From Candidatus Parcubacteria bacterium (GTDB lineage: Bacteria; Patescibacteriota; Minisyncoccia; UBA6257; JAGOQP01), in the NCBI GenBank assembly GCA_025999395.1, contig AP024682.1:173638-237637 (forward strand): a stretch of DNA of 64,000 nucleotides, in the 5' to 3' direction. The notes under the pieces were generated by a model. That model had not been told where the DNA came from. It was given only the letters and a program-made list of their open reading frames with translations, and made no database searches. Of the stretch, positions 2,643 through 63,616 are shown piece after piece. A program made the translations under genes and the position numbers. How positions within the stretch are numbered: the stretch's first letter is position 1; each line of letters starts with the position of its first letter.

Positions 2643-4607
2643 ATGTTTTACTATTTTATTTTTACTCCTTTAGTCTTGGCCATTCTTTACGGTCTTTATC
2701 TAATTTTTTGGCTTAAGAAAAAACCAGTGGAAGATGAAAGAATGAAGGAAATTTCTAAAGCCATTCAGGAAGGAGCCAGCGCTTATTTAGCACGTCAATC
2801 AAGAACGGTGGCTGTAGTAGCAGCGGTTTTGGCGGTAATTATTTTCTTAGCTTTAGGTTGGAAAACTGCTCTAGGATTTCTTGTTGGAGGACTAACCTCC
2901 GCTTTGGTGGGTTATATTGGAATGAGGGTGGCGGTTAATTCTAACGCCAAAACCACTCAAGCGGCCAAAGAAGGAGTTAACTCGGCCCTTTCCTTAGCTT
3001 TTAAGGCGGGATCAGTCACCGGACTTTTGGTGGCAGCTTTGGGATTATTAATTGTTTCTCTTTTTTACTTTCTTTTCAAAGACTTGGCGGCGTTAGTGGG
3101 GCTTTCTTTTGGAGCTAGCTTGATTTCAGTATTTGCTCGTTTGGGAGGGGGAATTTATACCAAAGCGGCTGATGTGGGAACCGACTTGGTAGGTAAAGTG
3201 GAAGCTGGAATCCCCGAAGATGATCCGCGCAACCCCGGAGTGATTGCGGATAATGTAGGAGATAATGTCGGCGATTGCGCGGGAATGGCAGCTGATCTTT
3301 TCGAAACTTATGCTGTTACTTTAACAGCGGGAATGCTTTTGGGCTTAACGGCTATTGGAACCACTATCTCGGTTGTCTTTCCTTTGGTAATCGGAGGAGT
3401 TTCTTTGGTGGCTTCTATTTTAGGATTCTTTTTTGTTCGCTTGAAAAAGAATGATTTTAATATTATGAAGGCTCTTTATAAAGGGTTGGGAGCTTCTTTA
3501 ATTTTATCAGCGATTGGATTTTATTTAGTGAGTCGTCTTTTCTTTGGCGCGGGTTATCTAAAAATCTTTCTTTCTTCTTTAATTGGCTTGGCGGTAACCG
3601 CATTAATGGTAATGATTACTGATTATTTTACCGCCAAAAAATATCGTCCTGTTCAATCGATTGCTCAAGCTTCTTCTTCGGGGCATGGGACTAACATTAT
3701 TATGGGAATAGCGGTTGGATTTCAGTCAACAATTTTGCCGGTAATTGTAATTTGTTTGGCTATTTGGGCAGCTTATTCTCTGGAAGGTCTTTACGGAGTA
3801 GCTATTGCTTCAACAGCGATGCTTTCGGTGGCTGGAATTGTTGTTTCGATTGATTCCTTTGGTCCAATTACTGATAACGCTGGAGGAATTGCGGAAATGA
3901 CTCAGCAATCAGAGGAAATTAGAAAAGTTACCGATGCTTTGGATGCGGTAGGAAATACTACTAAAGCCGTTACTAAAGGGTATGCTATTGGTTCGGCGGG
4001 ATTGGCGGCTTTGGTTCTTTTCTCAAGCTATGTAGAAGAAATCAAGGGAATTAGTTTTGATTTGAGCAATCCTTTGGTTTTAGTCGGCTTACTTTTGGGA
4101 GCGGCAGTTCCTTATTTGTTTGGTGGAATTACTTTAAAATCAGTAGGAAGAGCAGCGGGAGCGGTAGTAGAAGAAATTCGTCGTCAGTTTAGGGAAATTC
4201 CCGGTCTTCTTGAAGGAAAAGCCAAACCTCAATATGGTCAAGCGGTAGACATTGTCACTAAAGCGGCTTTAAAGGAAATGATCCTTCCTTCTTTAATTCC
4301 GGTAATAACTACTTTGCTGGTGGGTTTTGTTTTGGGAGCAACAGCTTTGGGAGGATTTTTGATGGGAGTAATTATTTCTGGCTTGTTTATGGCATTATCA
4401 ATGACTACCGGAGGAGCAGCTTGGGATAATGCCAAGAAGTTTATTGAAGAGGGAAATTTTGGAGGAAAGGGTTCGGAAGCTCATAAAGCAGCGGTAACTG
4501 GTGATACCGTTGGCGATCCTTACAAAGACACCACTGGTCCCGCTATTAATCCTCTTATTAAGGTAATCAACATTATCGCTCTTTTGATTGTTAAGTTCTT
4601 AAGGTAA
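2643..4607 (+). CDS. hppA: membrane-bound proton/sodium-translocating pyrophosphatase (V-type H+-PPase)
   Basis: 654 aa polytopic; signature motifs [18 protein letters not shown] and [22 protein letters not shown]. Confidence 0.9.
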
Positions 4608-4633
4608 TTTTGGAAATATTGCTTAATTTGTTT

Positions 4634-4693
4634 TGTAAAAACTTGTTTTTACAAGAGTTTCTCTTTGTTTTGCTTTGAGGGAAGTGTTATAAT
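4634..4693 (+). promoter_or_regulatory. perfect palindrome TGTAAAAAC-TT-GTTTTTACA (4634-4653) followed by TTGTTT-N17-TATAAT promoter upstream of clpP
   Basis: 9-bp inverted repeat with 2-nt spacer immediately upstream of -35 (4665-4670) and -10 (4688-4693); candidate repressor operator of the clpP operon. Confidence 0.4.
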
Positions 4694-4707
4694 TAAAAAA
4701 CAAAAAT

Positions 4708-5355
4708 ATGTCTCGAACAAAAAAGAAAGCTACTAATTTTGATGTGGAAGAAGACTACACTAGCCAGCTTATTCCGATGGTAGTGGAAAAATCTCCCTAC
4801 GGAGAAAGGGCTTACGATATTTATTCCCGTCTTCTTAAGGAAAGAATAATTTTTCTTGGCGGTCCGATTACTGATGCCTTGGCTAACTCAGTGATTGCTC
4901 AACTTTTGCTTTTAAATCACGAAGATTCCAAAAAAGACATTTTGATCTACATTAATAGCCCCGGAGGATCAGTGACTGCTGGGTTAGCTATTTATGACAC
5001 CATGCAACATGTTAAGCCCGATGTTTCTACAATTTGTGTAGGAATGGCGGCTTCGATGGCGGCGGTACTTTTGGCAGCAGGGAAAAAAGGAAAAAGATTT
5101 GCCTTGCCAAATTCAGAGATTTTACTTCATCAAGTAATGGGAGGTGCCGAAGGACAAGCAACCGAAATAGAAATCACCGCCAAGCAAATTATAAAAATCA
5201 AGGAAAAAATTAATCAGATTTTAGCTAAACACACTGGCCAATCGGTAAGTAAAATAGAAAAGGATACTGATCGGGATTTTTACTTGAGTGCTTCGGAGGC
5301 GAAAGACTACGGAATTATCGACGAGATTATTAAACCCGCTAAAGGAGGAAAATAA
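4708..5355 (+). CDS. clpP: ATP-dependent Clp protease proteolytic subunit ClpP
   Basis: [31 protein letters not shown] (Ser), HQVMGG (His) catalytic-triad context typical of ClpP. Confidence 0.9.
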
Positions 5356-5367
5356 AATCTTTATTTT

Positions 5368-6393
5368 ATGGCGCGCGTAGGTTTGTTTCAAATAAAAGGC
5401 TGGGAAGCGGATTATCTAAAATCCAAGTTAGAAGCCGCTGGTTTTGAGGTAGATATTTTTGAAACAGAAGTTGAAAAATCAGAAATTTCTGATTTTTCAA
5501 AATATCAAGCCATTTCAGTTTTTGTTGGCTCTTCAATTAACAAAGAAGTCATTGATAAATTCTCTAATTTAAAACTTATCACTACTCGCTCTACTGGTTT
5601 TGATCATATTGATCTAAATTACGCTCGTTCAAAAAATATTGCTTTAGGTTATGTGCCAAACTACGGCGAAAACACGGTGGCAGAATTTGCGATGGGCTTA
5701 ATTTTAACTCTTTCTCGCAAGCTTTATTTAGGAATTGACAGAATTAAAGAAGGAGGCGAATTTTCTTTTGAGGGCTTGGAAGGTTTTGATTTGAAAGGGA
5801 AAACTTTGGGGGTGGTGGGAGCCGGAAGAATTGGCCGCCATGTAATTAAAATGGCTAAAGGGTTTGATATGAGAGTGATTGCTTATGATCGCAATCCCAA
5901 GCCGGAATTAGCTCAAGAGTTAGGTTTTGAGTATGTTTCCTATGATGATTTGTTGAAGGAGTCTGATATTATTACTTTCCATGTTTTTTATGCTCCCGAG
6001 ACTCATCATATGTTTAATAAAAATTGTTTAGAAAAAGTGAAAAAAGGAGTGATTATCATTAATACTGCTCGGGGACCAGTGATTGAAACAGAAGCTTTGG
6101 TTTTGGGGCTTCAAAAAGGAATTATTGGCGGAGCGGGGTTAGATGTTTTGGAAGAGGAAGGAGTTCTTAAAGATGAGCAAGGATTTTGGATGAGAAGTTT
6201 AGAAGAAGAGTCTTTAAAAACCAATTTAAGGGTGCTTTTGGAAAATCATTTACTTTTCCGAATGCCTAATGTAGTAGTAACTCCTCACAACGCCTTCAAT
6301 ACTCGCGAAGCCAAAATGAGAATTTTGGATACTGATTTTGCCAACATTTCTTCATTTTTTGAGAAAGGAATGGTTCAATTTCCTATTCCTTAA
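5368..6393 (+). CDS. D-isomer-specific 2-hydroxyacid dehydrogenase (D-lactate/glycerate dehydrogenase family)
   Basis: NAD-binding GVVGAGRIGRHVIKMAKGFDMRVIAYD, catalytic R/E/H region (TARGPVIETEAL ... VVTPHNAF). Confidence 0.8.
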   Translation: MARVGLFQIKGWEADYLKSKLEAAGFEVDIFETEVEKSEISDFSKYQAISVFVGSSINKEVIDKFSNLKLITTRSTGFDHIDLNYARSKNIALGYVPNYGENTVAEFAMGLILTLSRKLYLGIDRIKEGGEFSFEGLEGFDLKGKTLGVVGAGRIGRHVIKMAKGFDMRVIAYDRNPKPELAQELGFEYVSYDDLLKESDIITFHVFYAPETHHMFNKNCLEKVKKGVIIINTARGPVIETEALVLGLQKGIIGGAGLDVLEEEGVLKDEQGFWMRSLEEESLKTNLRVLLENHLLFRMPNVVVTPHNAFNTREAKMRILDTDFANISSFFEKGMVQFPIP

Positions 6394-54492: not shown

Positions 54493-54566
54493 GGCAGGGT
54501 AGCTCAGTTGGTTAGAGCGGGCGTTTCATAAGCGTCAGGTCGTGGGTTCGAATCCCACCCCTGCTA
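54493..54566 (+). tRNA. tRNA with CAT anticodon (elongator Met or Ile2-lysidine; not distinguishable by eye)
   Basis: GGCAGGG-TA-GCTC-AGTTGGTTA-GAGC-G-GGCGT-TTCATAA-GCGTC-AGGTC-GTGGG-TTCGAAT-CCCAC-CCCTGCT-A. Confidence 0.75.
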
Positions 54567-54665
54567 CTCTTCTCTATCTATCGAAGGCAAGTTCTTGGTA
54601 AGCTAGATTCTTTTACCAAAGGAAGATAATTAAAAAGCTTAAAAAAAGTAAAAATGTTATCAAGT

Positions 54666-55325
54666 TCAAACTTTGATAGTTTTTATTTCTTTTATTAGTT
54701 GTTTTATCCTTTTCCCCCACAAGCTATTTTTTATTTTGTTATCTACTTTTTCAAACAATGTTTCTAATTTTTTTAGGTAGTGTTTGCTTTTTTCAAACTG
54801 TTTTGTGAGGTTGTAAAACTTCACCAAGTTTGAGTAACACGCCCAGTTGTTTGGCTCAATTTTCATTCCTTTAAGTAGCCATTTTTCGGCGTTTTTGTAA
54901 TCTCCAATGGATTCATAAATGAATCCCACATTTTGGACATAAATTCCATAATCTAATTTATTCTGTTTAGCTAATTTAATAGCCTTTTTGGCGTAGGGGA
55001 GAGCTCTTTTGCTTTTTCTGTGCCATCAAACTCTTCCTATTCCCCAAACTGCTCCGGGAAGTTTTGGATTTATTTTTATGGCCTTTTGATAAAACTTAAT
55101 TGCTTTGTCTTCTAATTTTTTCCTTTCTTGTCCCTTCTTTCTTAAAGCAAGGTGGTCGTACAATAAACCTAAATGACAGAGAAAAAAATAATTTCTTGTC
55201 ATCTCTCTATTTTTACGCCCCAGCTTTTCCAGTTGTTGTATTCCCCATTTATATCTGTAGTTATTTGCGGCAGCTCTGAAAATCTCTTCTATCTTTTTAG
55301 ATTTATCTTCTTTTGGTTTTTCCAT
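54666..55325 (-). pseudogene. TPR-repeat protein gene interrupted by a single in-frame TGA (55028-55026 on minus strand)
   Basis: track ORFs 55026..55325 and 54666..54929 are in the same frame; read-through gives continuous TPR sequence ...GAVWGIGRV*WHRKSKRALPYAKKAIKLAKQNKLDYGIYVQNVGFIYESIGDYKNAEKWLL... Confidence 0.55.
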
Positions 55326-55545: not shown

Positions 55546-55860
55546 GTGAAAGAAAATATGAAGGAAAAAGAAGTAAAAATAACAAGGAGTTACGAGCATG
55601 CAGATAAAGGAGAATTAGAATGGAAGGAATCTGAGGCAAGAAGAATAAGGGAAAGAATCATAAATTTAAGAAGGGATCAAATCGGAGCTTTGTCGTATTT
55701 GATTGGCGTAGAGTTTCCAAGAGACGAACTTGATCAGATTGTGTTGGAAATAAAAGAAAATGGCCAAAATTCTGTTAATATAGACGCCATTGTCTATGAA
55801 GCGGAATCAAAAGAAAAATTACTTTGGTGGCTTGATTATTTTGAGCGGCGCAACAAGTGA
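55546..55860 (+). CDS. hypothetical 104-aa protein, copy 1 of duplicated module (identical to copy 2)
   Basis: MKEKEVKITRSYEHADKGELEWKESEARRIRERIINLRRDQIGALSYLIGVEFPRDELDQIVLEIKENGQNSVNIDAIVYEAESKEKLLWWLDYFERRNK; no recognisable domain. Confidence 0.5.
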   Translation: MKENMKEKEVKITRSYEHADKGELEWKESEARRIRERIINLRRDQIGALSYLIGVEFPRDELDQIVLEIKENGQNSVNIDAIVYEAESKEKLLWWLDYFERRNK

Positions 55861-55990
55861 TTTTTTTATTGGTTTACGCCTTCTTTTTTATATTTATACT
55901 TAAACAAATACAGTATTGACTTAAAAATTATTTCTTATAATAATAATTATTGAAGCCGAGAGATTGGCTCTCGGCATAGCACATTAACAA
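55558..55990 (+). repeat. 433-bp direct repeat copy 1 (gene + promoter/5'UTR), 1 mismatch vs copy 2 at 58796..59228
   Basis: nucleotide identity from the ATG through ...ctctcggca[t/c]agcacattaacaa; both copies followed after about 22 divergent nt by shared CCCCAGAAAGGAGGTGAGA RBS block. Confidence 0.9.
55916..55944 (+). promoter_or_regulatory. promoter-like TTGACT ... TATAAT/AATAAT plus 8-bp perfect hairpin (gccgagag-attgg-ctctcggc) in the 5'UTR of peptide gene A; same in copy 2
   Basis: TTGACT 55916-55921, TATAAT 55936-55941 (14-nt spacer) or AATAAT with 17-nt spacer. Confidence 0.35.
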
Positions 55991-56034
55991 AGTTTAGACC
56001 TGGGTGAGATATCCCCAGAAAGGAGGTGAGAAGA

Positions 56035-56187
56035 ATGGCTCGCAGAAAAACATCTAGAATTCTCCGTGCTATTCGTCGAGAGGTGAAGAAGGAGAAAAAG
56101 CTTCATTTCAAGATTCGAATTACACCTGGTTGCAGCGAACTGAATTGCAGTACTTACTGCTCTGATCATGAGGATGCTGATCACTAA
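56035..56187 (+). CDS. 50-aa Cys-rich peptide A (putative RiPP precursor): basic leader + C-terminal core ITPGCSELNCSTYCSDHEDADH
   Basis: ATG 56035 nine nt after GGAGGTGA; MARRKTSRILRAIRREVKKEKKLHFKIRITPGCSELNCSTYCSDHEDADH; stop TAA 56185; below ORF-track size cutoff; directly upstream of rSAM/SPASM gene. Confidence 0.55.
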   Translation: MARRKTSRILRAIRREVKKEKKLHFKIRITPGCSELNCSTYCSDHEDADH

Positions 56188-56203
56188 CGAGAGTGGTTCT
56201 CGA

Positions 56204-56242
56204 GGGGGCGTAGTTGTCTTTTTTTAAAACAACTGCGCCCCC
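56204..56242 (+). promoter_or_regulatory. 14-bp stem-loop (GGGGGCGTAGTTGT / ACAACTGCGCCCCC) between peptide A and the radical SAM gene; no T-run
   Basis: one G.U pair, 10-11-nt loop; typical position of the processing/attenuator hairpin that sets precursor:enzyme stoichiometry in RiPP operons. Confidence 0.5.
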
Positions 56243-56276
56243 ACCGTATTTGTGCGAAGATGTAAGGAGGTGTAGG

Positions 56277-57359
56277 ATGAGAAAAAAGATGACAGTTATG
56301 ATATTACCGGTGGGATTAAGTTGTAACATGGCCTGTAAGTATTGTTATCACGATGGCAGGCCGCGTGTGAACGAGAAGCAAAGCAGAATGTCAGTTGATT
56401 TATTAAGAAAGTTGATTAAAGACAGCGCAGAATTAGCCAGTGATATTGATTTTGTTTGGCATGGAGGAGAACCGCTTCTTGCTGGAATGGAACACTTTAA
56501 GACCGCCATTGATATTCAAAGGAAGACTTGTTTTTCGGGGCGAGTCAGAAACATCATTCAAACCAATGGGGTTCTTTTGAATAAATCTTGGTGTCGATTT
56601 CTTTCGCTGAATCATTTCATAATAAGTACAAGTCTTGATGGTCCTGCAGAAATCAATGATGCAAATCGTCTTTTATTAGGAGGTGGAAAAACCTATCATC
56701 GTGTTGCAAGAGCGGTTCGATTATGGAAGCAAACCGGTAATCAAATGGGAGCTGTTGCTCTAGTAACCAGAACAAATGTAAGGTATCCTGCAGAAACGTA
56801 CAGAGGCTTGAAAAGAGTAGGTTTTAAGAGTTGTGCTTTTCACGTCTGTTCTCAAAATGATGATCAATCTGTTGATCTTGTACCCTCTGCTGAAGAAGCG
56901 GCTTATTTTCTTAAGTCGGTTTTTGATTTGTGGTTCGAGGAGGATGATCCCACGTTTTTAATTCGCAACTTTAGGAATGTTTTGAGAGTGTTGTGTGGGG
57001 GAGTAACAATTGATTGTGCCTCTCGTGTTGATGGTTGTTGGGGATTTATAGCCGTTACTGCTAACGGAGATGTTTATCCTTGTCATCGATTTGTCAACAG
57101 AACCAATTTTCGATTAGGAAATATATTAGAAGAAAGCCTCTCGGCTCTCTATAAGAAAGGATATTCACTTTACAGAGCGATGTGTTCTCTACCCGAAGAG
57201 TGTGAGCGGTGTGAATGGATAAATGTTTGCGGTGGGGGATGTGCATACGAACGTATCGTGGTTAATGGTTCTTTTCAAAGTATTCACCCAGCTTGTGAGG
57301 TAAAAAAAGAACTTTTTGCTCACATAAAAATCAAAACAAACGAGCTCATAAAGAAGTAA
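56277..57359 (+). CDS. radical SAM enzyme with C-terminal SPASM domain (anSME / peptide-maturase family)
   Basis: ATG 56277 with RBS AAGGAGG (track ORF extends upstream to 56214); CNMACKYCYHDG (CxxxCxxC), HGGEPLL, C-terminal CHRFVN...CERCEWINVCGGGCAYE auxiliary-cluster motif. Confidence 0.8.
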   Translation: MRKKMTVMILPVGLSCNMACKYCYHDGRPRVNEKQSRMSVDLLRKLIKDSAELASDIDFVWHGGEPLLAGMEHFKTAIDIQRKTCFSGRVRNIIQTNGVLLNKSWCRFLSLNHFIISTSLDGPAEINDANRLLLGGGKTYHRVARAVRLWKQTGNQMGAVALVTRTNVRYPAETYRGLKRVGFKSCAFHVCSQNDDQSVDLVPSAEEAAYFLKSVFDLWFEEDDPTFLIRNFRNVLRVLCGGVTIDCASRVDGCWGFIAVTANGDVYPCHRFVNRTNFRLGNILEESLSALYKKGYSLYRAMCSLPEECERCEWINVCGGGCAYERIVVNGSFQSIHPACEVKKELFAHIKIKTNELIKK

Positions 57360-58017
57360 CGAGCCGTTTCCGCACGGAGATGGCTCTTTTTTTTACCACA
57401 ATCCGAGCTATGGCGTGCTTATGTGGTTCTGGGTAACCCTGATGCCCTCTATCTTTTATTATTTCTTCTCTATAAAAAATTTTTTCGAAGTTTTCTTTAT
57501 CGAAGTGCTTAATTAACTCTTTAGGCTTGAGAAAATACCATTTATTTCCCTTTTTATCCCGAAAGGTCCTTTCGCTAGTTTTTATAAACTGTTTTGATCT
57601 ACTCATCTTTTTAAACATTTCGTCTTTAGTAGTGAAAGAAGAAATTATTATCAGTCCGTTTTCTTTTACCGCTGTTTTCATTTTTTTTATGATCGAGTCA
57701 AATTCTTTTTTTGAAAGAAAGAAGAGAGAGTTCGTTGCAATAATAGCAGAATAGTAGTTTTTGCGGAAAGAGAAGTCGCGGATATCTTTATGCTTAGCTT
57801 TGATGGATATATTTTGAGATTTGGCCAATCTCTTTATTTTTTCTATCTGGTTATTGTTTTTGTCAACCGCTGTTACTAAAAATCCTTTACTTGCCAGAAA
57901 CAAAGAGTTATTTCCTCTTCCACAACCCAAGTCTAACACTCTGCCTTTTGGTATGTACTTAACAAATTTACTTATTAGCGGAGAGGGTTGGTATTTGTGT
58001 TTATTATCCCGCTTCAT
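57346..58017 (-). CDS. class I SAM-dependent methyltransferase (TehB-like)
   Basis: VLDLGCGRGNNSLFLASKGFLVTAVD motif I; convergent with rSAM gene (14-nt overlap). Confidence 0.7.
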   Translation of the reverse strand: MKRDNKHKYQPSPLISKFVKYIPKGRVLDLGCGRGNNSLFLASKGFLVTAVDKNNNQIEKIKRLAKSQNISIKAKHKDIRDFSFRKNYYSAIIATNSLFFLSKKEFDSIIKKMKTAVKENGLIIISSFTTKDEMFKKMSRSKQFIKTSERTFRDKKGNKWYFLKPKELIKHFDKENFEKIFYREEIIKDRGHQGYPEPHKHAIARIVVKKRAISVRKRLVTSL

Positions 58018-58149
58018 AATCTAAGTTTTTTGTTTAATTTAGAAAAGATGGGTCTGGAGCAAACGATACTTCAAGTTTAAATTTGTATTTATTATAGTAT
58101 AGTATTAAAAAAGTTAAAAAATATCTCGTTTTTTAGCGTATTCATAAAA

Positions 58150-58668
58150 ATGACTCAAACAGAAGTAACTCAAGAAATAAAAGACATTGTCTCAGAATTT
58201 AAAACAAATGGCTTGCTGAGAATTTTTGAGATTCTAGAGTGGATTCATAAGAATTTAAAAGTAAGCCAGGACAGGGAGTATAAAAGAAAATACTTCAGAT
58301 CACGCACCTCTGATGAAATAATAAAGAGCAAAATGTTAACCGGTTGCACCGATTACGCATTGGTTTTTTTGTCTCTTATCAGAGCTAGCGGATTTGAGGC
58401 TAAATATGTGGAAGCGATTGAGACGGTGTGGTTGGAACGCGGTTGCGATGAGATTTTGGGGCATGTTTTTGTTGAGGTTTTACTCGACAATAAGTGGCTT
58501 ATCGTCGATCCTCAGGGGGCCGCAATAAAAGCGTGGTACGGAAGACGCTATGTAATATACGCTAAGGGAAATGATTCTTGGGATTTGGGAATAAAAAATT
58601 TTGATGACCTAAAAAATAAATTTATTGAATACAGAGAAAAATATTTCAATAACAGCAGAAACCCTTAA
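58150..58668 (+). CDS. transglutaminase-like cysteine-protease superfamily protein
   Basis: core LTGCTDYALVFLSLIRASGFEAKYV...GHVFVEVLLDNKWLIVDPQ (Cys-His-Asp arrangement). Confidence 0.5.
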   Translation: MTQTEVTQEIKDIVSEFKTNGLLRIFEILEWIHKNLKVSQDREYKRKYFRSRTSDEIIKSKMLTGCTDYALVFLSLIRASGFEAKYVEAIETVWLERGCDEILGHVFVEVLLDNKWLIVDPQGAAIKAWYGRRYVIYAKGNDSWDLGIKNFDDLKNKFIEYREKYFNNSRNP

Positions 58669-58795
58669 GCGATGAGCACAGGCTTCTGGTTTTCAGCATC
58701 TCCCCAGAGAGCAACAACAAAAATAGAGCCACACAGACTTGATCATGTCTCTAAAGTGTTCAACCTTAATAAAGCGAATAAAATTTTCAATTCTT

Positions 58796-59098
58796 ATGAA
58801 GGAAAAAGAAGTAAAAATAACAAGGAGTTACGAGCATGCAGATAAAGGAGAATTAGAATGGAAGGAATCTGAGGCAAGAAGAATAAGGGAAAGAATCATA
58901 AATTTAAGAAGGGATCAAATCGGAGCTTTGTCGTATTTGATTGGCGTAGAGTTTCCAAGAGACGAACTTGATCAGATTGTGTTGGAAATAAAAGAAAATG
59001 GCCAAAATTCTGTTAATATAGACGCCATTGTCTATGAAGCGGAATCAAAAGAAAAATTACTTTGGTGGCTTGATTATTTTGAGCGGCGCAACAAGTGA
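58796..59098 (+). CDS. hypothetical 104-aa protein, copy 2 (identical protein to 55546 gene)
   Basis: track ORF 58739.. has spurious upstream extension; identity begins at ATG 58796. Confidence 0.5.
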   Translation: MKEKEVKITRSYEHADKGELEWKESEARRIRERIINLRRDQIGALSYLIGVEFPRDELDQIVLEIKENGQNSVNIDAIVYEAESKEKLLWWLDYFERRNK

Positions 59099-59228
59099 TT
59101 TTTTTATTGGTTTACGCCTTCTTTTTTATATTTATACTTAAACAAATACAGTATTGACTTAAAAATTATTTCTTATAATAATAATTATTGAAGCCGAGAG
59201 ATTGGCTCTCGGCACAGCACATTAACAA
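58796..59228 (+). repeat. 433-bp direct repeat copy 2
   Basis: see copy 1; single t/c difference. Confidence 0.9.
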
Positions 59229-59275
59229 GTTGTGTGAAGCGGGTGAGGCTTCCCCAGAAAGGAGGTGAGATGATT

Positions 59276-59404
59276 ATGAAAATTCCCAAGAAATTTAGTT
59301 GGAGAATTGCTGTTGAACCGAGAAAATCAGTTCCGTGCTCCTCCGTCTTTCAAACTCAATGCAGTTGTGGCGGCAGCAGTTGCTGCGGCAAGTGTGGCAA
59401 GTGA
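59276..59404 (+). CDS. 42-aa Cys-rich peptide B (putative second RiPP precursor), 7 Cys in C-terminal 22 residues
   Basis: MKIPKKFSWRIAVEPRKSVPCSSVFQTQCSCGGSSCCGKCGK; ATG 59276 ten nt after GGAGG (alternative ATG 59270); stop TGA 59402; below track cutoff. Confidence 0.5.
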   Translation: MKIPKKFSWRIAVEPRKSVPCSSVFQTQCSCGGSSCCGKCGK

Positions 59405-59426
59405 TCGAGCGACGTTTTAAGTTCTC

Positions 59427-59465
59427 GGGGTATTATGGAAATAGTCATAATACCCCATTTTTTTA
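59427..59465 (+). terminator. rho-independent terminator after peptide B (ggggtattatg-gaaatagt-cataatacccc + ATTTTTTT)
   Basis: 11-bp perfect stem followed by T-run. Confidence 0.75.
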
Positions 59466-59474
59466 CAGTTTATT

Positions 59475-60281
59475 TTATGATTCTATTATTTTGTCAGAGC
59501 TGATTTGAATAATTTTTTTCCAAGAAAGCTTCGGGTGTTTATTTCTGAATTTCTTCATAAAATAGTATCCAATTGAGTATCCTGTCCACTGCTTATATTT
59601 TTTATTTCCGTAAAATATTTTCTTATATAATCCAATACCATTTTTGTTCAAGTATGACTTTAGTGTTTCAAATTGCCTAATAGTTTCCTCTTCTGTTAAA
59701 GCCAGGGTCCAAGGAGAGCGACTACCTTTAACTATCTCCTCTCTAAAAACTTCTGCCATTCCCTCCATTGCCATATATGTTCTGAGGTTATACGATTTTT
59801 CTTTATGGTATCTGTAGAATACTAAATGATTCCACTCATGTGCGATGGTTTCTGTTAAGGATTGTTTACTATAATTATTTGGGTTTATAAATATGTGCAT
59901 AGTGTAATAAGTTGCAAAAGCTGTTACTCCTTGAAAAAGAGAGAGTTTTTTTGTATTAGGAAACCACGGATATATAAAGATAAATATGGGTGGATCTGGG
60001 TGTGGTAAAAATTGATGGCATTTTTTTAGTGTCTTGTGGATGTTTTTTTTGATAAATGATTTTTGTTTTATTGAAAGTGGTTGATACTGAATAAAATTAC
60101 TTCTACTCACATATGATTCTAAATCTTTTTGAAATTTCTTTTTATTTGAGTAGCCAACATATTTAATATTCCCCGACTCTTCCATTTCGTTTATAATCAA
60201 CCCAACAAGCTTTTGTTCGCTTCTAAGCCGATGTATCTTTTTAGGAAAGCAGAAGTTGATTTTTGCTAAGCTTAGATCCAT
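59475..60281 (-). CDS. putative Zn-metallopeptidase-like protein (HExxH ... E motif)
   Basis: ETIAHEWNHLVFYRY (HExxH) and downstream MAMEGMAEVF; no signal peptide; convergent on peptide B. Confidence 0.45.
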   Translation of the reverse strand: MDLSLAKINFCFPKKIHRLRSEQKLVGLIINEMEESGNIKYVGYSNKKKFQKDLESYVSRSNFIQYQPLSIKQKSFIKKNIHKTLKKCHQFLPHPDPPIFIFIYPWFPNTKKLSLFQGVTAFATYYTMHIFINPNNYSKQSLTETIAHEWNHLVFYRYHKEKSYNLRTYMAMEGMAEVFREEIVKGSRSPWTLALTEEETIRQFETLKSYLNKNGIGLYKKIFYGNKKYKQWTGYSIGYYFMKKFRNKHPKLSWKKIIQISSDKIIES

Positions 60282-60391: not shown

Positions 60392-60658
60392 TTACGCAAA
60401 AGGATGCGGGAATTTAGTGATGTTTGCGTATGAAAGGCTAACTCCTCCAAACTCGTAAGCTATTGTGTATAGCCTCTCTACTCCTCCTGGTTCTTGTCGG
60501 TAGCCAAATGTCATTGGTACTATTCCAGTGACAATGGATCGGATGATGTGTAGGTTGCCATTCTCGCTGTATTTGTCCGAGAGGAATCGAGGGAGTAGTC
60601 TTTCGATTATACTATTGACTTTTTTTAATGTGATTGGTATAATTTGGGCATCGCACAT
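60392..60658 (-). CDS. hypothetical 88-aa protein
   Basis: ORF only; no motif. Confidence 0.25.
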   Translation of the reverse strand: MCDAQIIPITLKKVNSIIERLLPRFLSDKYSENGNLHIIRSIVTGIVPMTFGYRQEPGGVERLYTIAYEFGGVSLSYANITKFPHPFA

Positions 60659-60791
60659 TGAAAATTTTTATTCGCTTCCGATACTACTGAATTGTTGGTC
60701 TTACGGGGTTTTTGAATCTAAGTTTTTCTTGGGTTTAAAAACCCCGTAAGACCTGAACCTTTTAAAGGCAGGCAGGGAAAAGGAGGCAGCC

Positions 60792-61952
60792 ATGAACCGC
60801 AAATGTTTTGGCGTGTTTATTGTTATGGCGGTTCTTGCCGCCATAACAAATCAAGCGGAGCCGGCGGCATCTTCACCTTCTGAAAGTGTTTCGAGCATAA
60901 TAACGCTTGAAGCGAACAGCATGTCTCGTGCTGGCTACGGTGCGGTGGAAGCTAACTACTGGATGGACCAACTCGGATTTACTCGAGATCCGGCCGTTAT
61001 CCAAGATGCCATGGATAGATACTACATGTTTGCTCCAGAAGGAATGCCGAGGCGTTGGGGTGATGGTTGGCTTAGCAAATTCGTTGCTAGTTTGCTAGCG
61101 ATTAGGGCGTGGGATATTCGCGACAAGCTGACAGAACCTCAAAAGTCCCAGCTCAATGAAATCCTTACAGATGCGATTCGGGAGGAAACATTTCGACTGG
61201 ATATGACTTGTGGTATCGACCCTTGGAATTCCTGCTCCGAAGACTTCGTTTCTTACTTAGCCCTACTTTCTCGGGTAAAGAACCTTTATCCTACTGTTGC
61301 AGAAAAAGCTGGAATCGGTTATGTGAGTAGTTTGGAGCGAAAATACTTAGAACTCACCTTTTCTACAGATAAAGGTTACTACTCGCTGGTTCGCGAACAA
61401 ACTCAAGATGGTATGCGGGTGTTGATGCACAACCATGGAGAGCAATCAGCGGTTTACACGGGCCTGCTTTTAATCTATTTAAACCACACTCTGCGAGCTT
61501 ACTCTTTAGCAAACAATCCTCTGCCCGACTATTTTTGCCAGGACTGGTTGATGGCCAACATCCGGGACATGTTTGAGTGGCTTCAATCGGTTTCGACTTC
61601 TGATGGGCTCTCCTTTTTAAACAGTTGTCTAAACGCTGAAGGCAATTTAGTCTCCTGCTCTGATATGAAGGTAGCTAATGCTGTTCCTAGAGTCGTACCT
61701 GCTGGTCGCCTGATGGTGAATTTAGTAACGAGCGGCGTTTTCAAGACGGAGGAGATCTTTTCTCTCCACGAATACCATTACCGCTTCTTTGATATAACTT
61801 ACAACGGCGGCAACATTTCAAACAATGGTCGACGCGCTGATTACAATTTGGATAATCAGGAGTTCGAGGTTCTGTGGGAAAACCCCTGCCACCTCTCTTC
61901 TCATCATTCGCTGAGACAACCACGCAGACACCTTCGCTCTGTTGATAAATGA
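60792..61952 (+). CDS. secreted protein of unknown function, paralog A (GC-rich copy)
   Basis: signal peptide MNRKCFGVFIVMAVLAAITNQA; shares blocks AVEANYW, GWLSKFVAS, FRLD.TCGIDPWNSCSEDFVS.LAL..RVKN.YP, NHGEQSAVY..LLLIYLNH with 62156 gene; GC3-rich codons unlike neighbours. Confidence 0.5.
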   Translation: MNRKCFGVFIVMAVLAAITNQAEPAASSPSESVSSIITLEANSMSRAGYGAVEANYWMDQLGFTRDPAVIQDAMDRYYMFAPEGMPRRWGDGWLSKFVASLLAIRAWDIRDKLTEPQKSQLNEILTDAIREETFRLDMTCGIDPWNSCSEDFVSYLALLSRVKNLYPTVAEKAGIGYVSSLERKYLELTFSTDKGYYSLVREQTQDGMRVLMHNHGEQSAVYTGLLLIYLNHTLRAYSLANNPLPDYFCQDWLMANIRDMFEWLQSVSTSDGLSFLNSCLNAEGNLVSCSDMKVANAVPRVVPAGRLMVNLVTSGVFKTEEIFSLHEYHYRFFDITYNGGNISNNGRRADYNLDNQEFEVLWENPCHLSSHHSLRQPRRHLRSVDK

Positions 61953-62155: not shown

Positions 62156-63616
62156 ATGGGGGAAAAATTTGATAATCGTAATCATTCATCTGAAAATGTT
62201 TCTCAGGAAACAGATGAAAGGTCTCGGAAGAGAGAGGGAGGAGCAAAAAAATACCTAAAAAAGGTAGCTGCTCTGATTTTAGGAGCGGCAGCAAGTTTTT
62301 CTTCTGGTGGAGAGTTGGCGAGCCGGTCACTTTTTGAAACTTTTGAGGAAGAAGAAAAAACCGCGGTAGCGCAGGCATCAGAAATTCAAGATTCGTTAGA
62401 AAATAATTCCCTTTCTTTTCTTACGCCAGAGGAAATAAAGGAAATTAATTTCTTAATAAAGGAAGCTATTAAAAAAGAAGTAGAAGCCTCTACTAAAAAA
62501 GAAATAAAAGCTTCCACCTTGGAGACCGATCCTTTAGGAAATAATTGGGAAAGATCTTTGGAGGGGGCGGTTGAGGCTAATTATTGGAGTAATGAATTAG
62601 GATTGACAGAAGAAGATTTAAAAAAATTTGAAAACAATCCTGAAGAATTTGGAAGGAATTACGCAAAAACAATTCAGCGCGCTCTTGATAGTTACTATCT
62701 TATTGCTTCACCAGGTGCTCCTTACAAATGGGGAAATGGCTGGCTTTCTAAATTTGTGGCCAGCAATTTAGCAATCAATGGTTATAGATTTAGAGATTAT
62801 CTTTCTAGCGAACAAAAAGAACAATTAAATACAGTTTTGGCAGATGCGGTTAAACTTTCTACTTTTCGATTGGATACCACTTGTGGGATTGATCCTTGGA
62901 ATTCTTGTTCAGAAGATTTTGTTTCCTTTCTAGCTTTAATTGCTCGAGTAAAAAACTTTTATCCGGAGGTTGTTTCACGAGTCGAGAAAGAATTGGGGGA
63001 AGATTATTTTATTAATGTAGAAAAAAAATTTCTTGAGCTTACTTTTACGGACGAAAATGGATTCTATTCGTTAGTGAGAGAAGAAACAGGGTTACAAGAC
63101 GGAGTTTCTTATGTATTGGCTCGAAATCATGGTGAGCAATCAGCAGTTTATAGTGCACTTCTACTTATCTACTTAAATCATGCCTTGGCATCATATCCGC
63201 TTAGTGGCAATAAAATCCCTGGTTTTTATCGAGATAGTAAGATTATTGAAAACATTAAGTCTTTATTTTCCTGGCTTCAGGAAGTGAGTTCTCCTGATGG
63301 AAATTCATTTTTGGGGGCTTGTCAAACTTCTGGAAAAGAAATTGTCGCTTGTAATGATTCTAAAGTAGCTAATGCTATTCCTAAAGTGTTACCAGCTGGA
63401 AGATTGATAAAAAATCTGATAGTTGCTGGAGTTTTGCCGAAAGAAGTTTTTAAAGAAAACAAGTATCATTATCTTGATTTTGATTCTTCTTATGAGGGGG
63501 GGAATATAAAAAACAAGGGTCGGCAAGAGGATTATAATTTAGATAATTTAATGTTCGAGCGAGGGAGGTTGGTATTTATGCTCCCTCCAATAAGAAGAGT
63601 TTTAAGGGGTCGTTGA
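62156..63616 (+). CDS. secreted protein of unknown function, paralog B (AT-rich copy with extra N-terminal acidic/Lys-rich region)
   Basis: homologous to 60792 gene over about 330 aa. Confidence 0.5.
   Translation: MGEKFDNRNHSSENVSQETDERSRKREGGAKKYLKKVAALILGAAASFSSGGELASRSLFETFEEEEKTAVAQASEIQDSLENNSLSFLTPEEIKEINFLIKEAIKKEVEASTKKEIKASTLETDPLGNNWERSLEGAVEANYWSNELGLTEEDLKKFENNPEEFGRNYAKTIQRALDSYYLIASPGAPYKWGNGWLSKFVASNLAINGYRFRDYLSSEQKEQLNTVLADAVKLSTFRLDTTCGIDPWNSCSEDFVSFLALIARVKNFYPEVVSRVEKELGEDYFINVEKKFLELTFTDENGFYSLVREETGLQDGVSYVLARNHGEQSAVYSALLLIYLNHALASYPLSGNKIPGFYRDSKIIENIKSLFSWLQEVSSPDGNSFLGACQTSGKEIVACNDSKVANAIPKVLPAGRLIKNLIVAGVLPKEVFKENKYHYLDFDSSYEGGNIKNKGRQEDYNLDNLMFERGRLVFMLPPIRRVLRGR

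Follow-up and report, generated by a model that had tools for sequence, protein, structure and literature searches.

Does a compact peptide locus in the genome of a Candidatus Parcubacteria bacterium encode one maturation enzyme that serves two different cysteine-rich peptides, or two peptide systems that have come to lie side by side? The locus is part of a 64,000-nt stretch of DNA (the window; GenBank assembly GCA_025999395.1, contig AP024682.1, positions 173,638 to 237,637 of the forward strand), and the coordinates below are those of the window unless a comparison locus, designated by an L number, is named. A first-pass annotation had described positions 55546–60281 as a cassette for ribosomally synthesised and post-translationally modified peptides (RiPPs), in which a single radical S-adenosylmethionine (SAM) enzyme with a SPASM domain would modify two unrelated small peptides, here called A and B, each preceded by a copy of the same small gene. 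The gene order and the structural elements listed there were all recovered, at the same positions or a few bases away, and the locus was found to reach past position 60281 to the remnant of a YcaO gene. We conclude that the region from 55.5 to 60.7 kb is probably a composite RiPP island, consisting of two independently conserved precursor cassettes, each behind a copy of a recently duplicated module. As judged by the conservation of gene order, the two cassettes appear to be independent, as opposed to a single maturase with two substrates. The anatomy of the locus, its synteny, the membership or non-membership of its proteins in known families and the conservation of the leader were observed directly.

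Peptide A and its radical SAM/SPASM enzyme

Cassette A comprises the following features.

56035–56187, forward strand: precursor peptide A, 50 aa, with a basic leader containing SRILRAIRREV and the core CSELNCSTYCSDHEDADH
56204–56242, forward strand: 14-bp stem-loop between the peptide A gene and the radical SAM gene, without a U tract
56277–57359, forward strand: predicted radical SAM/SPASM peptide maturase, 360 aa, resembling anaerobic sulfatase-maturating enzymes (anSME), with the Shine-Dalgarno (SD) sequence AAGGAGGTG at 56264–56272
57361–57394, forward strand: intrinsic terminator behind the radical SAM gene, an 11-bp stem followed by T8
57346–58017, reverse strand: TehB-like SAM-dependent methyltransferase, convergent with the radical SAM gene (PF03848, 1e-24)
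58150–58668, forward strand: transglutaminase-core (papain-like) protein (PF01841, 1e-11)

The first-pass proposal of a RiPP-type pair was borne out by comparison of nine loci from bacteria belonging to the candidate phyla radiation (CPR, or Patescibacteria), namely the window, L001, L009, L029, L030, L032, L034, L037 and L038. The radical SAM enzymes of the eight other loci are 41–65% identical to that of the window, and in all nine loci an open reading frame (ORF) of the peptide-A type (47–57 aa) lies 20–130 nt upstream of the enzyme gene. In all of these peptides the leader carries the motif S-[KR]-I-[ILVM]-x-[SA]-I-[KR]-x-E-V, and the core, which is acidic, contains Cys-Ser units in the pattern C-S-[ED]-x-x-C-[SN]-x-Y-C-S-[DET]. 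Since a homologous small peptide stands directly upstream of the enzyme in nine of nine loci, we concluded that peptide A and the radical SAM/SPASM protein, as far as synteny can tell, are a genuine RiPP-type pair. No NCBIfam precursor model matched peptide A. Approximately 48 protein clusters are at least 40% identical to the enzyme, and all of those with an organism name come from Patescibacteria. The stem-loop that separates the two genes has a folding energy of -32.9 kcal/mol (z -6.6 against shuffled sequences). In L038, the peptide-A homologue (2114–2285) carries an in-frame TAA within its core (..LVCGH*GCSESACNNYCSES), with the radical SAM and methyltransferase genes intact; it may be a pseudogene or reflect an assembly error. 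A second radical SAM gene is located 1.3 kb downstream of this homologue.

The enzyme matched both Pfam domains proposed for it above the gathering thresholds (PF04055, 47.8 bits; PF13186, 34.9 bits), and displays the radical SAM cluster motif CX3CX2C at residues 16–23 (C16, C20 and C23) in addition to the SPASM domain. Its best NCBIfam match is the anSME model TIGR03942 and its nearest solved structures are those of anSMEcpe (4K36–4K39, E 2e-50), with the alignment to 4K36 spanning residues 5–349. In addition, one public source names the protein 'anaerobic sulfatase maturase'. All of this would be expected if the protein were a true anSME and the upstream small ORF fortuitous. We regard this explanation as very improbable, since the score of 261.9 bits falls short of the curated anSME cutoff of 349.45 and a conserved peptide with leader and core precedes the gene in every one of the nine loci. 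Furthermore, the C/S-x-P/A-x-R motif of sulfatases is absent from every frame of the 64-kb window, and the residue aligned with Asp277 of anSMEcpe, which from the structural literature we take to be catalytic, is replaced by His (YPCHRF versus YPCDFY). L001, L029 and L030 likewise have His at this position; L035 has Gly and L009 has Ala. Firm placement in the anSME clade together with unconserved peptides, the outcome that would have spoken against the first-pass interpretation, was thus not what we found.

None of the NCBIfam equivalog cutoffs was reached by the enzyme, including, besides anSME, those for DynA (the second-best match, 229 bits, cutoff 450), PapB (NF047865, 139.7 bits, cutoff 340) and the SCIFF maturase (TIGR03974, 105.5 bits, cutoff 425). 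The public 'anaerobic sulfatase maturase' label is probably wrong for this clade. The public protein model (P0001, 343 aa) also begins 17 residues late and loses Cys16; the start codon at ATG 56277 is preceded by the ribosome-binding site AAGGAGGTG. As the cluster motif begins at residue 16, there is no room for the N-terminal RiPP recognition element (RRE) by which sactipeptide maturases would be recognised.

The enzyme shares with characterised anSME (anSMEcpe, AtsB; TIGR03942) its size, the N-terminal position of the radical SAM core, the lack of an RRE and the Cys ligands of the C-terminal SPASM domain. It differs from them not only in score and in the His residue but also in being partnered by a precursor-like peptide instead of a sulfatase and in having a co-conserved methyltransferase. 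A second group for comparison consists of the anSME-like RiPP maturases DynA (dynobactin), DarE (darobactin), PapB (ranthipeptide), enzymes of the QhpD type, and the cyclophane formers GrrM/OscB, YhhB and XyeB. Like these, the window enzyme is a radical SAM/SPASM protein encoded just after a short precursor; the known members cross-link a few core residues. Unlike them, it reaches none of the model cutoffs, and the core of peptide A, in which three Cys-Ser units are combined with one Tyr and acidic residues, does not fit the motif of any of their precursors.

The methyltransferase, suggested at first pass as a tailoring enzyme of the radical SAM pathway, kept that role: a convergent TehB-like gene lies behind the radical SAM gene in six of the nine loci (window, L029, L030, L032, L034 and L038), and the window protein is 41% identical to that of L030. 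Judged by this recurrence, the predicted methyltransferase is a conserved partner of cassette A. The transglutaminase-core protein, also put forward as part of the pathway, recurs with 70% identity behind a different radical SAM gene in L035. In that locus (4341–6311), a 67-aa peptide with Ser-Tyr-Ser-Asp repeats (..SYNDGGSYSDSYSDSNYGDYSD..) precedes a radical SAM/SPASM enzyme, which is followed by the transglutaminase-like gene. This enzyme is 32% identical to that of the window and scores 318 bits on the anSME model, and the 67-aa peptide looks like a substrate of the cyclophane type.

Peptide B and its neighbours

Cassette B comprises the following features.

59276–59404, forward strand: precursor peptide B, 42 aa, with a leader containing PKKFSWRI and the Gly/Ser/Cys-rich core FQTQCSCGGSSCCGKCGK
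59427–59463, forward strand: intrinsic terminator after peptide B, a 12-bp stem (59427–59456) followed by T7
59475–60281, reverse strand: DUF2268 protein, predicted Zn protease with HEWNH motif, convergent with peptide B (PF10026, 1e-30)
60392–60658, reverse strand: C-terminal remnant (88 aa) of a SagD-type YcaO cyclodehydratase

When 1.84 billion representative proteins were searched exhaustively, four true homologues of peptide B emerged, and all five family members conform to the pattern PKKF[SA]W[KR]...FQ[ET]QC[SG][CS]G.GGG.QC.GQCG. The genomic context of the homologues was examined in three loci (L039/L040, L041 and L042). In L039/L040 and L041 a DUF2268 gene is convergent with the peptide gene, as in the window, with 40% identity between the window and L039 proteins. 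In L042 the homologue faces a full-length YcaO gene (PF02624, 1e-39; SagD-type TOMM model TIGR03604, 162 bits), and residues 262–332 of its product are 58% identical to the remnant in the window (approximately 70 residues, E 1e-27). A short YcaO C-terminal ORF also lies behind the DUF2268 gene of L039 (6166–6468, reverse strand). No anSME-like radical SAM gene is present nearby in L039, L041 or L042. L039 holds only a split TehB-like gene and a SPASM fragment, and these are signs of decay. As peptide-B homologues adjoin DUF2268 and/or YcaO genes and lack an anSME-like radical SAM gene, the HExxH gene appears to belong with peptide B: the DUF2268 protein is predicted to be the partner of peptide B and not, as had been suggested at first pass, a processing enzyme of the radical SAM pathway.

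These contexts also bear on the claim that one maturase serves both cores. Under that explanation, the radical SAM/SPASM enzyme would act on peptides A and B alike, and the methyltransferase, the transglutaminase-like protein and the HExxH protein would be shared tailoring or processing enzymes. The two peptides are indeed encoded in a single locus of 5 kb, where each follows a copy of the same promoter and leader, both are Cys-rich with Cys-Ser dipeptides, and the cognate YcaO of peptide B is truncated in the window, so that another enzyme could have taken its place. However, peptide B lacks the leader motif of peptide A: its score of 0.8 bits against the peptide-A profile was equalled by 238 of 2000 shuffled sequences and is not significant, and a shared leader was rejected on this basis. 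In addition to the pairing of peptide-B homologues with DUF2268 or YcaO described above, no peptide-B-like ORF was reported beside the radical SAM gene in the eight other peptide-A loci. We therefore consider a common maturase improbable and the claim of two cores with one enzyme not upheld; two independent cassettes fit these data better.

Within this interpretation, the best reading of peptide B is that of an azoline-type precursor whose cyclodehydratase was lost in the window. Its conserved leader is followed by a core of the Cys/Ser/Thr-rich kind seen in thiazole/oxazole-modified microcins (TOMMs), and an intact YcaO gene next to the precursor is lacking in the window. The Gly/Ser/Cys-rich core and the SagD-type YcaO facing the L042 homologue are shared with TOMMs and linear azol(in)e peptides, and peptide B resembles microcin B17. 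In contrast to these systems, the YcaO of the window is reduced to its 88-aa C-terminal piece, no dehydrogenase or E1-like partner is found in the locus, and the constant neighbour is a DUF2268 zincin. The cluster of the YcaO remnant (at least 90% identity) includes a 94-aa protein from a 2.8-kb contig labelled 'Candidatus Bilamarchaeaceae archaeon', which is probably a mis-binned CPR contig.

The duplicated module and its 100-aa protein

The two cassettes are linked by the module that precedes each of them and that comprises the following features.

55557–55990, forward strand: module copy 1, approximately 434 nt, containing the 100-aa gene, the promoter and the first leader hairpin
55558–55860, forward strand: acidic helical protein of 100 aa, copy 1, from a CPR-restricted family
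58796–59098, forward strand: 100-aa protein, copy 2, with a coding sequence identical to that of copy 1
55916–55944, forward strand: sigma-70-like promoter TTGACT-17-AATAAT, copy 1
59154–59182, forward strand: promoter, copy 2, the same site
55950–56034, forward strand: conserved 5' leader, copy 1 (covariance model R1, 107 bits)
59188–59275, forward strand: 5' leader, copy 2 (covariance model R1, 105.6 bits)

The segment 55557–55990 is repeated directly at 58795–59228 over approximately 434 nt with 1 mismatch and an offset of 3238. The duplication reported at first pass thus stands, and only the length of its ORF, given as 104 aa, had to be revised: the most likely start is ATG 55558, which yields 100 aa and matches the public protein P0121. 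Exact repetition stops 15 nt past hairpin 1 of the leader, and a stretch of 88% similarity then extends to the ribosome-binding site GGAGGTGA. By exact protein matches, one of them under the locus tag KatS3mg098_204, the source is a metagenome-assembled genome of a Candidatus Parcubacteria bacterium. Exact repeats of 434 nt can arise from mis-joins in such genomes, and the duplication might accordingly be an assembly artefact. This is very unlikely, because the two copies differ in their flanks in a meaningful way, with a different conserved peptide family and different partner genes behind each, and because members of the 100-aa family also occur as tandem or dispersed pairs in L003/L011 and L020. 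Independent Logan assemblies place peptide A on a contig of 2878 nt, close to the distance between the repeats, as we would expect of a real repeat.

The promoter matches the sigma-70 consensus at 10 of 12 positions, the best such match of the region, and is a consensus match only. Copy 1 of the leader consists of hairpin 1 (55955–55975, 8 bp), the linker GGCATAGCACATTAACAA, hairpin 2 (56000–56018) and the SD sequence GGAGGTGA (56022–56029). No Rfam match to the leader was obtained at E <= 1 between 52 and 64 kb. The same leader of approximately 90 nt occurs twice in L003, once before a graspetide-like precursor and once before an ATP-grasp gene. Between the two L003 copies, the leaders and intergenic regions are 91% identical, compared to 65% for the upstream coding sequences of the 100-aa proteins. 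Between the window and L003, identity is 79% in the leader, 61% in the coding sequence and 44% in the promoter-proximal spacer. None of the four copies has a broken pair in hairpin 1, and the changes at three positions produce G-U pairs, which is consistent with an RNA structure on the sense strand. Strong covariance-model matches were confined to these four copies in the window and L003; weak matches, which owe their scores to the GGAAAGGAGGTGA part, also occur at many other loci, immediately upstream of precursor ORFs, and most of these loci have an unrelated 5' hairpin of their own.

The 12-mer GCACNTTAACAA is found in both leaders of the window (55979–55990 and 59217–59228) and upstream of the peptide-A gene of L038 (2031–2042). 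A role as shared operator was considered and not retained: the exact match is limited to the window (twice) and L038, too few occurrences for a conclusion. The sequence TTAACAA also occurs upstream of the precursors of L034 and L037, again in too few cases to judge.

The 100-aa protein had been described as lacking a recognisable family. It indeed matched no Pfam, NCBIfam, PADLOC or PHROG entry, and no relatives of its predicted fold were found. By profile search, however, it belongs to a family of 52 clusters, for which every source organism name given is from Patescibacteria. The alignment of 52 sequences was too diverse for pattern design, and a subset of 14 sequences was used for the family-wide search of loci. 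An AlphaFold2 model of high confidence calculated from the family alignment (pLDDT, predicted local distance difference test, 87) displays a five-helix bundle with a disordered N-terminus of 20 residues.

The gene neighbourhoods of the family are those of predicted RiPP loci. At 13 of approximately 21 distinct loci, a Thr/Asp/Lys/His-rich, graspetide-like peptide of approximately 60 aa is encoded directly beside the 100-aa gene, usually upstream of it, following the pattern ..WKTS.EHP..G.THTD.YH.D..G.RD.PH..D.K.SG.K.EPSM.DI.PPSKK. The same islands encode ATP-grasp ligases of the MvdC/D type (L003, L020 and L035), radical SAM/SPASM enzymes (L005, L009, L015, L023 and L035), M16 peptidases (L003, L007, L010 and L023), a C39 peptidase (L005), a DUF2268 protein (L006) and DUF6624 proteins (L003 and L012). 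L003, L020 and L035 contain both an ATP-grasp ligase and a graspetide-like precursor. In L009, the partner peptide, the 100-aa gene, a precursor of the peptide-A type and a radical SAM gene follow one another, the enzyme being 41% identical to that of the window. The window itself does not look like a graspetide locus: the best tblastn match to the L003 ATP-grasp protein had an E value of 0.05, and the hidden Markov model (HMM) of the partner peptide gave zero matches. A degenerate partner peptide upstream of the 100-aa genes of the window was rejected as a candidate, as this HMM had no match. Downstream of the 100-aa gene in L005 (5480–5590), L019 and L020, the element GTCATCCTGA[AG]CG[AC]AGTGAAGGATC, probably a REP-like repeat, occurs in several copies after the terminator of that gene.

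Based on its distribution across these loci, the 100-aa family is CPR-wide and tied to predicted RiPP islands, and the protein would represent a class-independent accessory of such islands. Its members are acidic proteins (median pI 5.45), and the adjacent precursors are basic. Our best guess is that the protein binds the basic precursors or their leaders in a chaperone- or immunity-like manner, rather than being an enzyme or a DNA binder. PqqD-type RREs, the LPL family and the four-helix immunity proteins of class IIa bacteriocins are likewise small, non-enzymatic and encoded beside a precursor gene; this is a functional analogy only. Unlike RREs, which combine a beta-sheet with a winged helix, the 100-aa protein has an all-alpha model, and neither its sequence nor its fold matched any of these accessories; a match of the PF05402 type was likewise lacking.

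CPR islands with ATP-grasp ligases, SPASM radical SAM enzymes, UbiE-like methyltransferases, zincin peptidases, tetratricopeptide repeat (TPR) proteins and an uncharacterised 'cluster 23' protein were described by Makarova et al. (2022, PMC8939145), who also put forward the LPL family as a possible chaperone of precursors. These graspetide clusters have the same make-up as the loci that hold the 100-aa family. The window differs from them in lacking an ATP-grasp gene, and the pair of radical SAM enzyme and peptide A as well as peptide B are not described in that study. The portions of the supplementary sequences of PMC8939145 that were searched contained no motif of the 100-aa family or of its ~60-aa partner. 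The tandem precursors of 'cluster 342' from the same study were considered as possible members of the 100-aa family and rejected as a different family. Our search of the literature on RiPPs, ranthipeptides and graspetides in Patescibacteria returned nothing specific to these families.

What the module does is a matter of weighing. We tentatively read it, on thin evidence, as a high-expression cassette, in which a promoter would be combined with a stabilising 5'-proximal hairpin and with an SD sequence that is very strong; a regulatory switch between UCCCC and GGAGG in the leader is a less likely alternative. As a more far-reaching and rather unlikely possibility, the 100-aa protein and the structured leader could act jointly as a portable module that controls the RiPP precursors of CPR bacteria irrespective of their class. 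The protein would then bind leader peptides or leader RNA and thereby gate the production, stability or self-protection of precursors of the radical SAM, YcaO and graspetide types. If true, this would represent a new kind of RiPP accessory that has no counterpart in characterised systems.

A narrower alternative, which we hold to be similarly doubtful, treats the 100-aa protein as a regulator acting on the leader RNA or on promoter-proximal DNA, so that the module would be a self-contained switch for precursor expression. It might do so by controlling an alternative UCCCC:GGAGG pairing that is able to sequester the SD sequence, and in one L003 copy the minimum-free-energy fold does pair CUUCCCC with GGGAGGU, occluding the SD sequence. 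The 100-aa gene adjoins the leader in all four copies from two genomes and has been co-duplicated with it in the window, and the leader is more strongly conserved than the coding sequence, which is in favour of such a switch. The acidic character of the family argues against this alternative, as does the lack of any match to a helix-turn-helix or RNA-binding fold. In addition, this leader does not follow the gene in most members of the family, which share only its SD-proximal part.

Several points weigh against the interpretation of the locus given here. The full leader is known from only two genomes (four copies), its covariation is limited to the G-U changes and one compensatory pair, and in three of four copies the leader as a whole has an unremarkable folding z-score. 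For the 100-aa protein, we detected no resemblance to any known immunity protein, RRE or regulator, and its peptide neighbour is not constant: the gene follows rplT in L018, and no peptide was found in L025. With regard to cassette B, a truncated YcaO ORF kept in two divergent genomes hints that it is perhaps selected and not a dead remnant, and peptide B could be a substrate of the radical SAM enzyme in this genome, given the shared promoter and leader, the Cys-Ser dipeptides and the loss of its own YcaO. Finally, the Pfam search of the locus revealed neither an exporter nor a leader protease of a proven RiPP type.

Proposed pathway and setting of the island

The anatomy of the locus suggests a working scheme, in which the chemistry, the order of steps and the roles of the stem-loop and of the 100-aa protein are inferred. 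Cassette A would be transcribed from approximately position 55951 through the leader, peptide A, the stem-loop and the radical SAM gene to the terminator. An excess of precursor over enzyme would result from the stem-loop, which lacks a U tract and probably acts on the short precursor transcript by stabilising it or by partial termination. The basic, probably helical leader of peptide A would be bound directly by the anSME-like enzyme, as that protein leaves no room for an RRE. Abstraction of a hydrogen atom in the core would most likely lead to Cys-derived thioether cross-links of the ranthipeptide or sactipeptide type; beta-oxidation of Cys or Ser, or a Tyr cross-link, would be less likely outcomes. 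The TehB-like enzyme would then methylate the product; for cleaving off the leader, the best candidate is the transglutaminase-core protein. Peptide B would be strongly expressed yet, due to the truncation of YcaO, probably no longer heterocyclised. The acidic 100-aa protein may bind basic precursors.

The genomes of CPR bacteria are tiny, and little secondary metabolism is usually attributed to them. The enzyme classes and the RiPP logic of this island are already known; the precursor families as well as the accessory protein with its leader are undescribed, and the maturase clade is probably mis-annotated. Three predicted families are concerned. The first is an anSME-like maturase clade whose precursor has three Cys-Ser units and whose methyltransferase partner is fixed, the second a Gly/Cys-rich peptide associated with DUF2268 and YcaO, and the third a small helical protein found alongside precursors from more than one RiPP class. 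These would represent small, clonable targets for new peptide chemistry, and they open the question of how episymbionts talk to, or compete for, their hosts.

Upstream of the island lie two further features.

54493–54567: tRNA-Met(CAT)
54666–55325, reverse strand: TPR-like gene with one in-frame TGA

The single TGA that breaks the TPR-like gene (..GIGRV*WHRK..) could mark a pseudogene, a read-through site or a sequencing error. A genetic code with TGA as sense codon was rejected, as 5 of the 37 long ORFs end in TGA and table 11 gives a normal reading of conserved genes. Within the island, the genes for the TehB-like and the transglutaminase-like proteins diverge from the spacer 58018–58149.

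Acquisition of the region had been suggested on the grounds of a GC content above that of its surroundings. This was not confirmed: the GC content is 0.361 (36.1%) in the region compared to 0.364 (36.4%) in the 64-kb window, and modestly raised values are limited to the two peptide genes (0.43 and 0.47) and the radical SAM gene (0.40). The GC argument for acquisition therefore fails, and tRNA-targeted integration was rejected as well, since the 3' end of the tRNA has no second copy and the locus contains no integrase. A phage origin was dismissed because the 100-aa family has neither relatives in viral contigs nor a PHROG match, and a defence system or toxin-antitoxin pair because there were zero PADLOC matches.

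Fragments of RiPP genes were also observed elsewhere in these islands. Genes consisting of a SPASM domain only and a split TehB-like methyltransferase are present in L001 (8025–8303) and L039 (7430–7906 and 3570–4149, both on the reverse strand), and RiPP genes of these CPR islands appear to be often gained and degraded. Histidine kinases are encoded beside peptide cassettes in three unrelated loci (L010, 6356–8482; L039, 1–1693, reverse strand; L029, 2027–3724, reverse strand), two of them with a 7TM-HisKA-GAF architecture, which hints at possible peptide sensing.

Downstream of the island, a near-perfect hairpin (60697–60753; 26-nt arms, 88% complementary, 5-nt loop) is located between the YcaO remnant and the next gene. 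Its sole Rfam match, to mir-9261, is spurious (27.8 bits compared to a gathering score of 86). It is followed on the forward strand by a paralogous pair of genes of unknown function (60792–61952 and 62156–63616), which share 50% identity and have no Pfam or PHROG match. The first of the two, which abuts the point of YcaO truncation, is markedly GC-rich (0.466 compared to 0.363).

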